NCBI GenBank assembly: GCA_036630325.1
Contig: CP142726.1
Coordinates: 992,001 to 1,056,000, forward strand
Direction: 5' to 3'
DNA length: 64,000 nt
DNA from: Vairimorpha necatrix
Taxonomy: Eukaryota
The notes under the pieces are model-generated. The model made no database searches, was not told where the DNA came from, and saw only the letters and a list, made by a program, of their open reading frames with translations. Both the position numbers and the translations under genes were made by a program. Shown one piece after another: positions 21,590 to 37,202 of this stretch (position 1 is the stretch's first letter; every line of letters begins with the position of its first letter).

Positions 21590-21632
21590 TACAAAAATTA
21601 TTTACGGGGTGAAATATTTGCCAACTATTCAT

Positions 21633-23725
21633 TCATATATATTAAAGAATTTTATTTAATTTTTTGCCCCTCTTTTTTGTGACTTAGAAATTTCTAAACT
21701 ATTACTTTTGGTCTTATTAAGATATTATAATATAAAATAAGAACTTAATGAATGATTTTGACTATCGTAAGTGTGTATGTTATAAGTTGATACTTTTTTG
21801 TTTTAATTATAATTTTTGTAAAACTCAGTTCCAAAATATCGTCAGAATCGTTTTTTAGAATTTATTTAACCCTTCTAGAAAAAATTCACAAAAACAATAA
21901 CCAAAAAAAAATTGAATATAAGTGTCAAAAAATGAGCTTAAAATTCCATAAAATTATTTCAATGAGATTCATAAGTGTTTTTAACTCAACTTTACTCCTT
22001 CTATGTCACTAAAAAGTATTTTTGAAAAAGATGATTTCATCCTATCAAATTCAATCAATCATCCCAAAATGGAAACTCACCAAAATTCACCGAGGCGGGA
22101 CATATAATAAAACAAAACATTTAGATCCCGTTTTCAAAACGGGAAAGCATACGCTAGTCATATATATAAAAGAATTTTATTTAATTTTTTACCCCTATTT
22201 TTTGTGGTTTTGAAAAATCTACACTACAAATTTTAGACTTATTGTGTATTAAAAATATCAAATTTACATCTAATGTTTCGATGTGATTATTGTAAGTGTG
22301 TATATTATGTGTTAATGCATTTTTATTCTAATTATTATTTTTGTTAAACTCAGTTCCAAAATATTGTCAGAATCGTTTTTTAGAATTTATTTAACCCTTC
22401 TAGAAAAACTTTAAAAACAATTGACAAAAGAAGAAATTGAATGTAAGTATCAAAAACTGAGCTTAAGAACTTCACAAAATTATCTCATTGAAATTATTAA
22501 ATGTTTTAAAACAACATTATTCCTTATATGTTACTAAAAAGTATTTTTGAAGATGATGTCCAAACTCTGTCAAATTCAATCATCCAAAATGGAAACTCAA
22601 CAAAATTAAAAGAGGGAATACATATTAAAAAACTAAACATTTAGATCCCGTTTTCAAAACGGGAACGCATACGCTAGTCATATATATAAAAGAATTTTAT
22701 TTAATTTTTTACCCCTCTTTTTTGTGGTTTTGAAATTTTTAAACGATACAATTTGAGCCTTTTACGTTAATATAATATCAAATTTAATTTTAACGTTTTA
22801 ATTTGATAATTGTGAGTACGTATATTATATATTAATGCATTTTAATTCATATTATTATTTTTGTAAAACTCAGTTCCAAAATATCGTCAGAATCGTTTTT
22901 TAGAATTTATTTAACCCTTCTAGAAAAAATTCACAAAAACATTAACCAAAAAATAAGTAAAATATAAGTGTCAAAATTTGAGCTTAGAAGTTCCCAAAAT
23001 TATCTCATTATAATTATTAAATGTTTTATGATCAAGTTTACTCCTTATATGTTACTAAAAAGTATTTTCCAAAATCATGTTTTCTCCTTTTCAAATTCAT
23101 TCATCAAAAAATGGAAATTCACAAAAAGATAAAGGAGGTACATATTGTAAAACAAACATTTAGATCCCGTTTTTAAAACGGGAAAGCATACGCTAGTCAT
23201 CATCATCATATATATAAAAGAATTTTATTTAATTTTTTACCCCTCTTTTTTTATGGTTTTGTAAACTTTAAACTTCTTATTACAGCTGATTATGTTATTG
23301 TAATATCAAATTTAAACTCAGTGCTTAAATTTGATAATTGTAAGTGCGTATACTATATATTACAGCATTTTTATTAGATTTATTATTTTTAGAAAACTCG
23401 GTTCCAAAATATCGTCAGAATCGTTTTTTAGAATTTATTTAACCCTTCTAGAAAAATTCACAAAAATATTAACCAAAGAAAAAGTTGAATATAAGTGTCA
23501 AAAATTGAGCTTAGAGGTATTCAAAATTATCTAATTATGATTTTAAAGTGTTTTACAACAACATTACTCCTTATATGTCATTAAAAAGTATTTTTAAAAA
23601 TCATGTCTAAACTCTGTCAAATTTAATCAGCCAAAAATGGAAACTTAACAAAATTTACTGAGACGGGACTAATTATAAAACTAAACAATAAGATCCCGTT
23701 TTCAAAACGGGAAAGCATACGCTAG
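21633..23725 (+). mobile_element. Tandem array of four ~520-bp non-autonomous Helitron-like units
   Basis: Units at 21633-22157, 22158-22677, 22678-23196 and 23197-23725. Each starts TCAT and ends with hairpin CCCGTTTT(C/T)AAAACGGG followed by AA(A/C)GCATACG-CTAG. A fifth decayed unit follows to about 24000. Confidence 0.85.
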
Positions 23726-24161
23726 TATATATATATTAAAGAATTTGTTTGATTTTTGAGCTGACCCCTATTCGTATTTTAAAATCTTCAAACTATAAAT
23801 TTTTCCATAATTTTTTTCAATTAAAATTAAATATAGATATAATGTAACACTTAACTGTTATGAGTGCGTATAATATATGTTAAAGCATGTTTATTTTGCA
23901 TTTTTTTTTTGTAAAATTAAGTACCGAAATATCGCCAGAATTGTCATTAGATTTTTTACCAACCCTAAAAATTACAACAATGTAATCAAATCAGAAAGAA
24001 ATGCTCAAGATAAATGACAAGATTCTACCAAAGAATTTCTGAAATGATTAATAAATTAGTAAAAGCGCTGGTTATTGAAAGCTTTTTATATATAGAAGAA
24101 ATTATTTATTTTGCATATTTTATCTATTTAAGATTACTTTGAGTGTCTTAGTTTTTGGTCA

Positions 24162-24936
24162 GGTGCCCTTAGCACAGTGGCAGAATGCTATGCTTCCATT
24201 GAGCAATGGCTGGGTTCGATTCCCAGGGGCACCAAAATTGTTCCTACTTTCTATGATGCAGATGATGAAAATGTCAACGAGAAATTATAAGTTGATTCAA
24301 TGAAACTTGTGTGTGTCCAGCCACAAGAGGATTAGCATCTTGTGTAGAAACGCACCTCAAAACCAAAAAACAGTATCTCCCCTTGGTACCTTGATTATGC
24401 ATAAAAGTATCTAATGGGTACGGCCTAGTTGGAGCCCATGGCTGGTGCACTCTAGAGTTGGATCCTGGAGCTAACTAAGAGACTAGACGAGGTTCGGCAA
24501 TGGAAGTTCTCGTGGACCCTATCCTATAAGATCTGAAACACGGTGGCCGAAACTAGTGGGGAACTGGTGGTCAACGCAGCCAAATAAATCCGCCGGGCTG
24601 GTGATGGGGTCGTGTAAGGTGCCGTGTGTGCAATACAGATGATTGTAGGGACCTTTGAATCAGTACGATGATGTCTCTCCTCGGGTCATAGATAACCATG
24701 CCCGTTAAGTATATCTGCTGTGAGGTCACTCTGGACGCGATTTGAGGTATAAATAGAAGGTTTTCTCTGGAAGCCAAAGTCCAATGGATACGGCGGAGCT
24801 TGCTGCACCGGTATGTTGTATGGAGGGAGTTTTAGTGAGTAAGAATCTCACAGTACCAGTTAGATGAGGATCCCACCCAAATCCTTCTGGTCCCTATGTA
24901 AGGTTTCTCGCTGCCTCTTAAATGCAAGGAAAAAAA
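24162..24936 (+). mobile_element. tRNA-derived SINE-like element
   Basis: tRNA-like head at 24162-24234 with box A TAGCACAGTGG (24170-24180), box B GGTTCGATTCC (24213-24223) and a non-canonical anticodon arm. Visibly GC-rich noncoding body; ends in an A run at 24930-24936. Confidence 0.7.
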
Positions 24937-24944
24937 CAAATTGT

Positions 24945-25753
24945 GGCACTACTTACTGCCCTTTTCAATAAGATATAGATTTTTTGAGAGAACGCCAATG
25001 CCCCTTTATGGTATTGGTATGAACTCAAACACTAGGATTTTGAAATTGTAAAAAGTGGTTAATTATGTGGCGAATTTGAATATGGTACACATTAATGCTA
25101 AGTTTTTTCACATTTTAGTATATAATAAACTTTTCGACTTACAAATTCTGTATGAAGTACCATAAGCGCTTCATTAATCTTTTTTAATATCAAAAAGTAT
25201 AGTTTTATGTTACATAGAACGTTCTATCATGCCAAAACACCAACTCCGCACTAATTTACCTTTATTAAATTTATTTTTTCCAATTTCAGTTTCATAGTTT
25301 TCTACTTCAAAATCTTTCCCGCCTATCTCGTTTATAGAAAATAATTAGTTATCAAAAATGTTAATGTCTTTTGGTTATATAAAAAAAATAAATCGAATTC
25401 TTAAAACAACCTAAAATTTGGCAAATATAATTACGAGGATAGCCACGAATTTATAAATTAAATAACCGAAAAATTATGATATGATTGGGTCTAGGACTAT
25501 CAAAGAAAGTATCTTTACATATTGATATTGTTTTATTACAATTTTCAGTACAAATCAAAAGACAACTCTATTCTTTCGTTAATCTCATTTTACCCCTGCT
25601 CACTTTACACATTTGATTTTGCCTTTAGTTGTTAAAACATCATAAACTGTTTTGTTTCAATTTATTCTCTGGCATTATACTTTCCTCAATTTTTAGAAAA
25701 ATGAGGCAATAAAGTCCTATTGTAGAAATTGCGACCTAAAGCTAACTTTGGCC
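24945..25753 (-). mobile_element. Degenerate Merlin-family transposon
   Basis: Minus-strand VHTNTIKGHWRSL and FGMIERS remnants. Right TIR GAAATTGCGACCTAAAGCTAACTTTGGCC is near-identical to that of 26171-27188. Left end approximate. Confidence 0.75.
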
Positions 25754-25829
25754 ACAAATAAAAACTTAGAAAAATAAAAGAATTTCCACCAAAAATTTAG
25801 TGAAAATAAAAAATTTTATTATCCCTATT

Positions 25830-28800
25830 ATGGAAATCATAAAAGTAATTTTTTTGTTTGTATTGGTCAAAACTAGGCATTCGTTATACGAAAACGTAAA
25901 TAACGATGCTATGGAAAAGCTAAAAACAGGGGATTTTATGTCTATTGATGTTTCAACCCCAGAAAAATATCTCGCTATATCTGCAAATTTTTATGAAGGA
26001 GCAGTAACATTTGGAATGTCAAATGGTACAGTTGAAAACAATATAGATTATGATTTGGGAAGATTTAAAGTTTTCACGAGAAATAAATCAGTAGTTGACA
26101 TTATAATTGAAATGGAGACGGAGATAGAATTGCTTTTTGATGTCTCGAATTACTATTCAATTGTGCTTTTGGCCAAAGTTAGCTTTAGGACGCAAATTTC
26201 AATATAGGGGTTTTTTGTTTTTTTGCCCCTTTTTTTAAAAAATGGAAGAAAGAAAATGTGGAGGAAGGAACAAAAATTAAAATTAGAACAATAAATTTAA
26301 TAATGCATCGAAAACAGAATCAGAGGAATTTCTCTGGAGCATATCTCTAAGTAAATAAAGTTTGGCGCTGTTTTTTGACCTATTTCTGTTAGGTATGGAA
26401 TTTTTGAGTGAACGCCAATTACCTTCAATGGTATTGGTGTGTACTCCAGTATTTGGATCTCGAAAGTTTAATGAGTGGTTTACCATATAATGTTTTTTAA
26501 ATAAGGTACCCAATGAATGATAAGCCCTCCACATATCACTATGTATAGTGCTTTTTGTATTAACAAATTTCAATAAGAGATCTGTAAGAGTTTCTTTATC
26601 TCTTTTCTTAATATATAGAACCACAAACTTACGTTCGATAGTACGTTCTAACAAGCCGAAACACCAAACCCCCTTCGCTAATTTTCCTCTGTTATATTTA
26701 TTTTTTCCGATTTTAGTTTCATCTACTTCAACAATGATATCTTCTCCTCCTATCTAGTTTAAAGATGATAAATATTTATCATAGAGGTTTAATTTCTTAA
26801 TTTTTTAAGTAAAAAGATATCGAAGGTTTTGAACAACAGAGAATTTGGCAAATAAATTTATAAGAATAGCCAAAAATCCACAAATTTGTACCTGCAAAAT
26901 TGTGATATGATCGAGTTTGGTGTTTTCAAAGAAAGTATTCGTCCATATCGATGTTTGCTTTGTACGATCTTTCCAGGTACAATTAAAACACAACTTTGCT
27001 TTCTCGTTAATCTCATTCTATTATCACACACACTGCAAATCTGATTTTGTCTTTTAGTAATTAAATTTTCATACACTATTTCTAATTCTGCTCTTGTCAT
27101 TATTCTTTCTTCCATTTTTTAAAAAAAGGGGCAAAAAAAAACAAAAAACCCCTATATCGAAATTTGCGTCCTAAAGCTAACTTTAGCCGTGCTTTTTATG
27201 ATACAAAACATCGAGAAGCATACCATATTATGAAAGAGTTTGTGTTCGAACTCATAAAAATTAATAATGAAAGAAAAATAAAGACATGTCTTTTTGTAAT
27301 TAACTATGAAAAAATATGTGAAGCTAGCAAAGCATTTCAAAAACACATAAGAGAAATTTTTAATTTTACTGGAAAAAATAACAAAGGATTGTCTCGGGTT
27401 AAGATTTGTCCTTATTTTTATTGGCAAAACTATAGAAATAATGTCGTAGTATATATTTACATTAATAATATTTGCCATGTCATGGAATTTTGTGCCAACG
27501 AATATTATCATATTGTTTTGGCAGAATTTGGCTTTAAAAACTAAATAAAGATCGAACATATGAATTACTTCAAATAAAATATATATATTATTACAACAGT
27601 ATTGGTTTTTACACCATAAGTTATTGTGTCGATAAATTAAATTGTTCCACTAAAAAAATTGAAATGAACAAAAACAACCAATGTTTAAAAATACAGATAG
27701 AAACAGAACATATAATTATTAAAATCAACGACACGGAACATTATTACAATATTCAAGGTGACATAGACCCCGATGAAAACAAATTTACATAAGCATGAAC
27801 TGTTATAAAGAATTTCGAACTTTTTTAAATGTACTAAGCGGCACCCAGTTTCTAGACGCCATATATTTTTTTTATAAATTAGTAGTTAATGATGATACAA
27901 TACATTCTATCATTCAAAGCATTATAAACAAACCAATATCGTAATAAAAACAATATTTTGTCATTTATTGTTATATAAAAAAGTAATAGATATAGATAAA
28001 TTTAGCACTATAATTTACAATTCAGAATATAGTGAAACGAAAATTGCAGAACTAACAAAAAAATTTTTATCAAATATAAGAATGTCTCTCTTTGATGATT
28101 TTTCATATTTACTAACCTTATGCTTACTCTTAGAAACAGAAACCTATATTAACGAAAATGAATTTGAAGAAAATACACTATTTGGTCTATTGAAAGAAAT
28201 CGGAATCGTCAATGTTGAATTCAAAAATGTGTTTAAATGTCGTGTTTTAAGTTCACATATAAATTTACTTGAGGTTTTTTATGAGATTGCGAATATACAT
28301 AATACTAATTATACATTTAATAACGAGGCGATTGTATATCATATTTGTAAAATAAGCGCATTATTTACAGGCCTGAGCTCTATAAATATCTATTATGATG
28401 TAATAAATGACAACATTAATATAAAACAAGACGAAATAATTGCTGAATACAATCTCGACAAAAAAGATATAACGAAAAACAATGAGATTATAACAAAAAA
28501 ATTAATCGAAAATTCAATCTAAAAGAAAAATTTAAATGTTTTGAAAGACATATTCTCATTTATTTCAATTAAAGAAAAGTTCACCTATATTTATATAGAA
28601 ATTATAGATAAATATTTAGAAAATAATTATGACAAAAAAGAAAAAAAGATAATTAAAAACAAAGTCAAATTTGAAATTGAAAAAAATTTTAATGAACGTG
28701 AAGCAGAATTACTTTCCATGAATATAACTAAAAGTAATATAGCGAACGTAGGAAAATATTCAATACTAAATTTACCCTTAGACTAAAAATGTACACTGAA

Positions 28801-30913: not shown

Positions 30914-31981
30914 GGCTAATATCAGCATCTGTGTAAAAAAACTGGGGGGTCAAAATTTTTAAAAAATTGCCCCTTTTTTTAAAAAACGAATGGAATGATG
31001 AGCAATGAGGAAATTGAAGATTTTTATATATCTTTAACAAAAAAGAAACATAATCAGAAATGTATTAAATGTGGTTGGGATACAGCTATTGTATCAAATG
31101 AAACTGCTTACTTGAGGTGTAAGTCTTCAAATTGCAAACACAGATTTTCAATTTGGAAAAATTCTTTTTTTGAAAACACTAGACTAGAACATTTACTGAT
31201 GTTAAAAATAGTAAATTTGTGGATATTAGGAATTAAAGCAATTCTTATATCAAAGATTTTGGGATGTAATGTATAAAATGTGAGTTACACCCTAGATAAA
31301 TTATATAAATTAAAAATTTATGATAAGTATTTGAACAAGCTGAAGCAAATAGGAGGCGAAAATACTATAGTCTAGATCGATGAAAGTAAAATTGGCAAAA
31401 ATAAGCATCATAGGTAAAGATTAGTTAAGGGGTTTTGGTGTTTCGGTATGGTGGAACGAACCGAAGCAAAGAAGATTGTATTCGTAATTATAAAGAAAAG
31501 AGACAGGGATACATTATTTCCAATCATGTTTGAGCATGTAAATTTTGAATCCGTAATTCATTCGGATATGTGGAGGGCGTATGCAACGTTAAAAAATCAT
31601 TATGCAGACCATAGGACTGTGAATCCCAGTCAAACTTTTAGAGACAGAGAGACAGGTGTGCATACAAACACCATAGAAGGGAATTGGAGGTCTTTAAAAG
31701 TCTCTATACCTAATAGGTGTAGGACTTATGAACTTGCTGAAATATATTTAGTTCTATATATGTTAAAAGACCTGAGAGCAAATACATCTTCAAAGCATTA
31801 TTAAAATTATGTTTTTGATATATTTTATTTATTTTAAAGTTAATTTTTATGCATTTTTATATCTTAATTACTTTTTTTGTTTTTTCTGAAGTTTTCTCTT
31901 CCCTTCGTTTTTTAAAAAAAGGGGCAATTTTTTAAAAATTTTGACCCCCCCAGTTTTTTTACACAGATGCTGATTTTAGCC
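30914..31981 (+). mobile_element. Merlin DNA transposon, transposase with premature stops
   Basis: TIRs of about 75 bp (GGCTAATATCAGCATCTGTGTAAAAAAACTGGGGGGTC...). ORF pieces 30995-31276 and 31448-31804 carry HSDMWRAY and HTNTIEGNW, with IDESKIG between them. Flanks share only AAATTC (imperfect TSD). Confidence 0.92.
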
Positions 31982-35021: not shown

Positions 35022-37202
35022 ATGAAAATCTTAAATGTAATTTTTTTGTTTGTGTTGGTCAAAACTAGGCATATGTTATACGAAAAGGTAAATAACAATG
35101 CTATGGAAAAGCTAAAAACAGGTGATTATATGTCTATTGATGTTTTAAGCCCAGAAAAATATCTCGCTATATCTGCATTGTTTTATGAAGATGCAGTAAG
35201 AATTGGAATGTTTGATGGTAAATTTAAAAACTATAATGACGATAATTTGGGAAATTTTACAATTATTACCAAAAACCAATCTGCAGTTGACATTATAAAT
35301 GAAATGGAGGCGAAGATAGAAAATCTTTTGGATGTCTCATGTTATTATTCAATTGTGCTTGTATATGATACATATCATCGAAAAGGATATCATATAATGA
35401 AAGAGTTTGTGTTTGAACTAAAAAAAATGAATAATGAAAGAAAAAAAAAGAGTAGTTTGTTAAAAATTAACTATGAAAAAATCTGTGAAGCAAGTAATGA
35501 ATTACAAAAATACATAAGTGAAATCTTTAATTCAACTGCTGAAACTAGTAAAAATACATCTCGATTTATGACTTGTTCGTACTTAGATTGGCAAAATAAT
35601 AGACATAATGTTGTAGTGAGTATTTACAATGATAATATTTGTCATATTATGGAATTTTGTGTCAATGAATATTATCATATTGCTTTGGCAGAAATTGACG
35701 TAAAAATAAACAACAAACAAATTTTTGAGAAACTTCATCAAATCTATAATTTATGCTATAATAGTATTAATTTTTATGAGATAAAATATTGTAGCCAAAA
35801 CTATAATCGGTCCACAAAAAAAATTGAAATGAACAAAAACAACCAATGTTTTAAAATACAGATAGAAACAGAACATATACTAATTCAAATTGACGATATG
35901 AATTTTTTTTACAATATACAAAACGACATAGATGCCGATGAAAGCAAATTTTACATAAGCAAGAACTGTTATAAAGAATTTGAAGCTTTTTTAAATATAC
36001 TGAGTGACCATGGGATTGATGACGCCTTATATTTCTTTTATAAATTAGTAGTTAATTATGATGAAATATATTTTATAATTCAAAACATTTTAAACAGATC
36101 AAGATCAGCAACAAATATAATATTTTGTCATTTATTGTTACATAAGAAAGCAATAGAAATAGATACATTTAATACTATAATTAACAACACAGAATATAGT
36201 GAAATCAAAGCCCCCGAGCTTATAAAAAATATAATATCAAATATAAGAATGTCCCATTTCGACGATTGTCTATATTTAATTACCTTATGCTTACTCTTAG
36301 AAACAGAAACCTATATCAACGAAAATGAATTTGAAGGAAATACATTATTTAGTTTATTAAAAGAAACTGGGAGCATCATAATTGAAAAAGAATATAATAA
36401 TGAGGCTGAAAGTCCTCTAATAATCCCGTATATAAATGTAGTACAGATTTTTATGAAAATTGCGAACGTACATAATTATATCTATGAATATAATAAAAAT
36501 GCAGTTCTTGAATATATTTGCAATATAGGTGCATTATTTACAGGCTTGAGCTCTATAAATATACATTATGATATAATATATAAAAACATTAATGTAAAAC
36601 GAGATCAAATCAGCACTAAAAACAATATTGATGAAAAAGACATAATAAAAAACAATGAAATAATAACTAAAAGATTAATCGAAAATACAATAGCAAAGAC
36701 AAAGGAAAATATTTTGAAAGGTGTCTTCTCAATAACATTAATTAAAGAAAAGTTAAATCACATTTTTAAGGAAATTATGAATAAATATTTAGAAAATAAT
36801 TATGACGAAAAAGAAAAAAAGATAATTGAAAACAAAGTCAAATTTGAAATTGAAAAATATGTTAATGAAATTGAACCAGAATTACTCAACATGAATATAA
36901 ATAAAGACGTAATAAACGAATATAGAAATATATTAATAGATAAATTTATGCTGAATTTAGACCAATATGCTCAGGAATATCTAAAAAATACTAGTAAAGA
37001 AATGTTTTACTCCACTATAATAAAATTATTTAAAAGTGAATTTAGTGATGATGAAAAAGAAAAAATTAAATGTCAAATAATTTTTGAAAAATTAAAAGAA
37101 ATATTGAATGAAAAAGAAAGGTTTGATATCGTAAATAATAACGAGGAATTATTTTATGCTGTAACGGACGAACTAAAAAAAACATTAAAAGGTTTTATTT
37201 AA
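35022..37202 (+). CDS. Lineage-specific secreted protein (726 aa), multigene family
   Basis: Intact long ORF after TACCCCTATT. Short hydrophobic N-terminus (ILNVIFLFVLV) consistent with a signal peptide. Paralogues in the window; no recognised domain. Confidence 0.88.
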   Translation: MKILNVIFLFVLVKTRHMLYEKVNNNAMEKLKTGDYMSIDVLSPEKYLAISALFYEDAVRIGMFDGKFKNYNDDNLGNFTIITKNQSAVDIINEMEAKIENLLDVSCYYSIVLVYDTYHRKGYHIMKEFVFELKKMNNERKKKSSLLKINYEKICEASNELQKYISEIFNSTAETSKNTSRFMTCSYLDWQNNRHNVVVSIYNDNICHIMEFCVNEYYHIALAEIDVKINNKQIFEKLHQIYNLCYNSINFYEIKYCSQNYNRSTKKIEMNKNNQCFKIQIETEHILIQIDDMNFFYNIQNDIDADESKFYISKNCYKEFEAFLNILSDHGIDDALYFFYKLVVNYDEIYFIIQNILNRSRSATNIIFCHLLLHKKAIEIDTFNTIINNTEYSEIKAPELIKNIISNIRMSHFDDCLYLITLCLLLETETYINENEFEGNTLFSLLKETGSIIIEKEYNNEAESPLIIPYINVVQIFMKIANVHNYIYEYNKNAVLEYICNIGALFTGLSSINIHYDIIYKNINVKRDQISTKNNIDEKDIIKNNEIITKRLIENTIAKTKENILKGVFSITLIKEKLNHIFKEIMNKYLENNYDEKEKKIIENKVKFEIEKYVNEIEPELLNMNINKDVINEYRNILIDKFMLNLDQYAQEYLKNTSKEMFYSTIIKLFKSEFSDDEKEKIKCQIIFEKLKEILNEKERFDIVNNNEELFYAVTDELKKTLKGFI

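Follow-up and report, generated by a model that had tools for sequence, protein, structure and literature searches.

A tRNA-headed SINE of Vairimorpha necatrix, likely native to its lineage and sharing its tail with a resident LINE

In the window analysed here, that is the whole stretch of 64,000 nucleotides from 992,001 to 1,056,000 of contig CP142726.1 of the microsporidian Vairimorpha necatrix (GCA_036630325.1), a tRNA-like sequence stands at the front of an island with a GC content of 46.9%, compared with 23.5% and 29.1% in the 2-kb flanks. An earlier note on this DNA, correct about the GC difference and the A run in which the island ends, read it as a SINE, possibly derived from an arthropod host. 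The locus raises the question of what this element is, and whether it entered the genome from outside. We are close to certain that it is a SINE, because its copies are numerous, dispersed and alike in their ends, carry A tails and target duplications, and have their tail in common with a LINE; on this point the note was right. We further consider it likely that this is a tRNA-derived SINE native to the Vairimorpha lineage, with a tail from a LINE-D-type element and copied by a LINE-D-type protein. The copy in the window is made up as follows.

24162–24929, then seven A to 24936, plus strand: the SINE copy, 768 bases before the A tail
24162–24234, plus strand: tRNA-like head (ARAGORN, Infernal, stem pairing), closest to the genome's tRNA-Ala genes
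24170–24180, plus strand: A box of the head
24196–24209, plus strand: short hairpin in place of the anticodon arm, the acceptor and T stems being intact
24213–24223, plus strand: B box of the head
24235–24762, plus strand: non-coding body with no Rfam match near the cut-off (Rfam search, fold against shuffles)
24763–24929, plus strand: tail, very probably LINE-derived, in which the final ~16 codons of a LINE-D-type ORF survive as a relic, followed by its 3′ UTR (77% over 92 bases to LINE-D)
24773–24794, plus strand: module A, a hairpin with an internal loop that overlaps the old ORF end and is seen again close to where the ORF stops in distant LINEs of the clade
24822–24917, plus strand: module B, a four-way junction of a closing helix, a GUUUUAG junction and three hairpins (separate fold predictions, weak Rfam R2 alignment)
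24930–24936, plus strand: A tail of seven A

The head has its A and B boxes, a 7-pair acceptor stem and a 5-pair T stem where the earlier note saw them, and the anticodon arm that the note called scrambled is non-canonical. Infernal gives it 24.9 bits, below the cut-off of 29, while the genome's own tRNA genes score 54.7–75.2 bits (63 of 978 candidates scored); ARAGORN still calls a tRNA-Met(CAT). In a functional tRNA gene one expects the cloverleaf to score above the Rfam cut-off and a terminator to follow, and the window head shows neither: all 30 tRNA genes examined have at least four T within 8 bases, and the head has no such run behind it. When A-type heads were compared with 47 distinct tRNA sequences from 63 regions of the genome, the four best were Ala isoacceptors with 49–50 matching bases (the anticodons of the best-ranked tRNAs were read by eye); as the alignment margins are small, we propose tRNA-Ala as the parent only tentatively. 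A guess by eye at tRNA-Gly was dropped, since the Ala genes rank first. Against the same 47 sequences, the B-type head is closest to a Leu tRNA gene. The B-type head (L023:1501–1573) has an A box as in tRNA-Leu genes and is predicted to form a long hairpin, not a cloverleaf (z −4.27), and it could represent a promoter replacement or an escape from tRNA processing. Elsewhere in the genome, at L090:2557–2660 and L267, there is a tRNA-Tyr/Ile-type gene with an intron (104 bases, Rfam 52–55 bits).

The body shows no sign of a gene or of a structured RNA. The longest stop-free stretch overlapping the window copy is 86 codons, the sole recognisable coding sequence is the 16-codon relic of the LINE ORF end, and the fold of a young copy's body is no better than that of shuffled sequences (z −0.39), with no support from Rfam. 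In alignment with the nearest copy, to which it is 92% identical, the window copy shows a 14-base deletion in the body. The earlier note had stressed the lack of a terminator for some 600 bases. The first run of four or more T does lie at 24761, with a second at 24830; however, the first is private to the window copy among 35 aligned copies, the family's usual single run being the one at 24830, and the scarcity is in line with the element's own base make-up (a young copy has one such run, where 2000 base shuffles predict 2.3; P(≤1) = 0.29).

Searches of the genome (15.0 Mb, 12 contigs), in which all copy counts are lower bounds, show that the element is multicopy. The best 40 of 329 candidates contain 43 matches, namely the window element, 40 near-full-length copies at 86–91% and two short pieces. 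A 24-base tail motif allowing two mismatches has at least 134 matches, spread over all 12 contigs, and a 24-base head motif has at least 98; the reversed controls gave none. Exact target duplications of 10–17 bases flank 30 of 36 copies, the set being the distinct copies with a 3′ end in loci L001–L107 that are not too near a locus edge, and mismatched flank pairs gave matches of at least 8 bases in 6 of 1260 cases. All but one of the 36 copies start within the first three bases of the element, and the A tails of other copies examined are 3–26 bases long. Two subfamilies can be told apart, A with 24 copies (median 95.9% alike) and B with 11 copies (median 99.5%), and 14 of the 25 majority differences between them fall in the 73-base head. 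A sister SINE family, ~70% similar and headed by a separate tRNA-like sequence, also occurs (L067:6100–6900; also L065, L074, L218 and L234); it has lost the GUUUUAG junction and partly kept the module A region. Sequence words of a young copy were found in part in 20 of 24 sequencing runs and to at least half in 3, a result that is mute on habitat, host, expression and junctions; a degenerate tail pattern had no matches in viral contigs.

The window copy itself has no target-site duplication, as the earlier note had observed, and a comparison of its flanks finds none. It lies between two repeats, both outside the SINE.

24064–24154, no strand assigned: left flank, a degraded fragment of a repeat whose copies stand in direct pairs on either side of gag/pol-like frames
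24938–25757, no strand assigned: right flank, the remnant of a Merlin-type DNA transposon (IS1595 domain) with an abrupt start next to the A tail

The repeat on the left is probably a Ty3/gypsy LTR. The usual upstream sequence of the Merlin relic was not found on the left side of the window copy, and together with the LTR-like left flank this means that the two flanks do not come from one target site. We suggest that the copy probably lost its duplication through rearrangement of its flanks, presumably caused by an adjacent deletion or by recombination of one SINE copy with another. At another copy, L007 (G000:C3 203688), 1500 bases of the left flank are common at 95% to L013 and L016, the right flank is different and there is no duplication; recombination between SINE copies is a possible explanation. 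The surroundings of the window copy hold further repeats. A tandem array at 21630–23930 consists of four to five diverged units of ~520–528 bases, in each of which a conserved motif follows a short palindrome; such units are also found at G000:C5 about 137000, and the array looks like a train of small Helitron-type elements. At 26167–27188 a Merlin-type transposon (IS1595 domain, ~72-base inverted repeats) splits a gene that resembles the 726-residue gene at 35022–37202, and a further Merlin-type frame lies at 31418–31804.

A LINE sharing the 3′ tail, which the earlier note had proposed to look for, is present in the same genome and is here called LINE-D. Its best copy (G000:C6 about 721057–724440) has an open frame of 1092 residues, an A tail and 45.5% GC; the element has an APE-type endonuclease and an RT domain and is inserted at many sites. 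The SINE and LINE-D have their final ~165 bases in common, a stretch that takes in the closing codons of the ORF; identity to LINE-D is 77% over 92 bases in the window copy and reaches 79% over 95 bases in a young copy. Translated, the young copy gives FSWSQSPMDTAELAAP, against FSWSQSPMGMAELDAP at the end of the V. ceranae protein P0003, with 13 of the 16 residues identical. Among the best 40 matches to a query made of the last 1226 bases of LINE-D, six are copies or stubs of LINE-D itself and the other 34 are SINE tails (E 1e-16 to 4e-13). An origin of the tail in the LINE-D lineage is in our view very probable. As the first half of the tail is ~79% like LINE-D and the second half is like it in fold only, the donor was a relative or ancestor of LINE-D.

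The LINE-D protein is identical (100%) to a record named V. necatrix pol. Among the 20 hits listed out of 7999 candidates it shows 78% identity to V. ceranae and 41–43% to broken V. bombi proteins, and the sole named insect is Diaphorina citri at 23%. Of the best 150 relatives 16 were looked up, comprising two clusters of Smittium culicis, one of Trachipleistophora hominis and 13 without a taxon; V. ceranae, V. bombi and T. hominis are named relatives. In a quick tree of 53 rows (the 45 best BLASTP hits plus named extras, of 214 eligible), the Vairimorpha LINE-D proteins form one clade (SH-aLRT 100) within a poorly resolved group with Smittium and unnamed proteins, and the insect protein falls outside the LINE-D group, on long branches. 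The partner LINE does not nest among arthropod LINEs in this tree: its named neighbours are fungal or microsporidian, most neighbours being without a taxon. A full-length LINE-D was not found in the assembly, since the best copy is cut inside the endonuclease, the second is broken and the rest are stubs; nor did any copy with the front of the protein turn up (34 of 34 candidates scored, and the best 42 of 103 in another search). One of the five copies looked at, a stub, resembles the SINE in ending in an A tail and in being flanked by a duplication, here of 12 bases with a single mismatch.

Two modules can be recognised in the tail, and we compared them across 80 metagenomic loci related to LINE-D. 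The module A pattern occurs once each in 6 of the 10 loci for which shuffled controls were made, against 0.07 per shuffled set, a count to be read in the light of the pattern having been defined after five of these six loci were viewed, L137 alone being unseen. Over all 80 loci there are eight matches on the coding strand and one on the other; in seven of the eight elements checked the module lies at most 90 bases from the stop of the longest frame, and in the eighth 295 bases behind a broken frame. Pair counts show 11 cells changed on both sides, reached in none of 500 shuffles, and are partly circular, as the pattern demands pairing. Module A may resemble the 11-nucleotide GNRA tetraloop receptor, a motif in which an internal loop is framed by two C-G pairs, a two-base platform step and a G-U pair. 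In the numbering of PMC10243134, the inner C-G and G-U pairs of module A are invariant in nine of nine rows, but the U-A ‘handle’, a defining pair, is a purine opposite A in all nine. A GNRA hairpin of at least three pairs that could dock into module A was absent from the tails of two SINE copies, LINE-D, L130 and L132, and present in 5 of the 10 tails scanned.

Module B, recognised as a U-rich junction followed by a 5-pair hairpin, lies downstream of the place of module A in 6 of the 80 loci. The same four-way junction was predicted separately for a young SINE copy (z −1.84), LINE-D (z −3.15) and L128 (z −4.73), the helices of which differ in sequence; the window copy folds otherwise (z −1.76), and the alignment shows its closing helix to be damaged by substitutions. 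An automated search for the closing helix found it in the young SINE copy, L128 and L133 and weakly in L137, failed for L129, L132 and L135, and gave poor helices in the window copy and two old stubs; in LINE-D it pointed to the wrong place, and the closing helix given for LINE-D comes from the separate fold prediction. The earlier note had likened the 3′ part to the R1-clade LINE-derived tails of insect SINEs. A weak alignment of the window tail with the Rfam R2 element does exist over the GUUUUAG junction (RF00524; 19 bits, E 0.43, cut-off 38), with no R2 match for LINE-D tails at E ≤ 5; however, the R2-like motif is also present in unnamed metagenomic LINEs related to LINE-D and is therefore no marker of insect origin. 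After the A tail of one such relative (L135:4960–5070) stands a sequence that we take to resemble the 28S rRNA site used by R2. The R2 3′ UTR (RF00524; Bombyx P1-J1/2-P2, PMC10499050) likewise has a closing helix, a short single-stranded junction and a second helix near the 3′ end, and as in Bombyx the R2 protein binds to two stems as well as to the junction that connects them (PMC10499050), module B could, on that model, be a protein-binding site. The two systems differ in that the window tail stays below the cut-off, LINE-D has an APE-type endonuclease and many insertion sites, and the Bombyx junction has two critical adenosines whereas that of the SINE and LINE-D is U-rich (PMC10499050).

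A broader reading is that the tail is an ancient two-part RNA handle for retrotransposon proteins, in which an internal-loop hairpin at the ORF end and the GUUUUAG junction of an R2-core fold have been kept in LINE clades whose endonucleases differ, over a range that extends from microsporidia and fungi to insects. We regard this as doubtful. If true, it would make the present case the first microsporidian SINE/LINE pair and a compact natural ‘tag’ for template choice by non-LTR reverse transcriptases, and the partner may be disappearing before the youngest subfamily does. Our literature searches found no description of both modules across LINE clades.

For the SINE as such we suggest the following course of events. 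A tRNA promoter, probably of tRNA-Ala, would have been joined to a body and to the 3′ end of a LINE-D-type element. Pol III would start at the head by means of the A and B boxes and, as there is no terminator behind the head, would read through body and tail; this transcription is deduced from sequence features. The ORF protein of a LINE-D-type element, with endonuclease and reverse transcriptase, would bind the folded tail, for which the two modules are the candidate sites, and nick a new site, and target-primed reverse transcription from the A tail would create the duplications. Stringent recognition of a common LINE tail is the standard mechanism (PMC3747384, PMC3272025). On this view the copy in the window is an older one, its duplication gone and its closing helix partly destroyed. 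The family's usual T run falls within module B, 100 bases short of the 3′ end. In 8 of 30 tRNA genes the first T run is no longer than four, so termination in module B may be frequent, and the full-length RNA may be a read-through minority.

We think that a LINE-D-type protein probably made most of the copies. There is a tension here, as no full-length LINE-D is seen and yet subfamily B is very young. The tail may once have come from LINE-D while the recent copies were made by the abundant LINE-A, needing only an A tail (relaxed recognition). LINE-A is a common LINE with many uninterrupted frames of 1242 residues that contain endonuclease and RT, and the near identity of subfamily B and the missing complete LINE-D would fit such a source. 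It is nevertheless unlikely: LINE-A and its decayed relative LINE-B end in T-rich coding-strand runs with no A tail and have no sequence in common with the SINE (no match better than E 0.3), for which both were rejected as partners; the young subfamily has kept both tail modules; and V. necatrix is reported to be tetraploid (PMC10759460), so that a haploid-sized assembly can lack an intact LINE-D. A genome search with Pfam PF14529 gave no endonuclease among 21 candidates, yet LINE-A has one, which makes this a false negative. LINE-A is found at L061:208–6010 (G000:C7 about 331200–337000) and many other places, 3′ units of LINE-A and LINE-B occur in tandem, and in L065 a 3′ piece is inserted in another LINE copy with a 14-base duplication. 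A movement of LINE-D between Vairimorpha species was also considered. The ORF is 77.5% identical to that of V. ceranae over 1051 residues, compared with 65% for alanyl-tRNA synthetase, but the first 321 residues of the synthetase are 80% identical, and this is a comparison with one gene.

Returning to the native SINE that we favor, three other accounts of the locus have to be weighed against it. Horizontal acquisition from an arthropod host would explain a GC content high for this genome and the weak alignment with R2, and other transposons have been reported to move between microsporidia and animals (PMC4202319). We find it very unlikely, and the sequences leave it unsupported: LINE-D, which shares the tail, resides in the same genome, is equally GC-rich and accounts for the tail; its lineage is present in three Vairimorpha species, the other taxon-named relatives being S. 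culicis and T. hominis (13 of 16 top relatives have no taxon); the sister family at ~70% and heavily decayed copies speak of long residence; and the lepidopteran SINEs described are shorter, with named partner LINEs that end in short repeats (PMC8010984, PMC3272025). A host origin is unneeded because the tail comes from a retrotransposon of the parasite's own lineage. That the head is a working tRNA-Met gene, or the element a tRNA-led structured non-coding RNA transcript, could be argued from the ARAGORN call, the perfect acceptor and T stems and weak Rfam mascRNA matches (26.6 and 28.6 bits, cut-off 42.5), but is most improbable given a score far below that of real tRNA genes, the presence of ordinary Met tRNAs in the genome, about a hundred copies with duplications, a D arm and anticodon region that differ in subfamily B, and the unremarkable fold of the body. 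Hardly credible at all is a misjoining of host DNA into the assembly. It would account for the missing duplication and the unrelated repeats on either side of the window copy, but the tail motif is on every contig, with its own flanks each time and mostly duplicated targets, both flanks of the window copy are repeat families of the V. necatrix genome, and the genes in the window are microsporidian, the first named relatives of its alanyl-tRNA synthetase being microsporidian as well.

SINEs are an ordinary class of element, and what we describe here is a new microsporidian member with a resident partner LINE. Its architecture is that of the fungal Mg-SINE with MgL/MGR583 and SINE2-1_BG with Tad1-24_BG, as presented in PMC3747384: a tRNA head with A and B boxes, an unrelated body, the tail of a resident LINE and target duplications. 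It differs from these pairs in its microsporidian host and in a common part that reaches into the coding end of the LINE, and the likeness drawn here is one of architecture. Of the features of a stringent SINE/LINE pair, homology of the tail to a resident LINE is present, and an intact partner was not found in the assembly. At ~780 bases the element is long compared with the typical 80–500 bases (PMC3272025). The lepidopteran HaSE1 and HaSE3 (HaRTE1) and PxSE1-5 (PxLINE1) are likewise tRNA- or 5S-headed with a short LINE-related 3′ part (PMC3272025, PMC8010984), but as described they are set apart by a length of 263–298 bases, microsatellite tails and a LINE part of 43 bases, whereas the Vairimorpha SINE ends in A and has ~165 bases. 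LINE-D is a microsporidian LINE of the kind counted in PMC4202319, Table 1 of which gives 4 LINE families for N. ceranae, 11 for N. bombycis and 9 for T. hominis. The main texts of PMC4202319, PMC7313128, PMC10759460 and PMC12558613 do not contain the word ‘SINE’, PMC13702014 has it solely as a RepeatMasker category, and PMC10946416 deals with MITEs in Nosema rDNA. Our literature searches showed no characterised microsporidian SINE; repeat libraries in supplements or in Dfam/Repbase may already contain the family.

For the genome of V. necatrix, the family means that tRNA predictors give false tRNA-Met genes from SINE heads, that over a hundred presence/absence markers are available for strains, and that recombination between SINE copies is pointed to as one source of genome rearrangement. 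A claimed case of host-to-parasite transfer is, for now, removed, and the tail modules offer a way to test how LINE proteins choose their templates. If the head is transcribed as its boxes suggest, even the reduced genome of this parasite would still support Pol III-driven retroposition.
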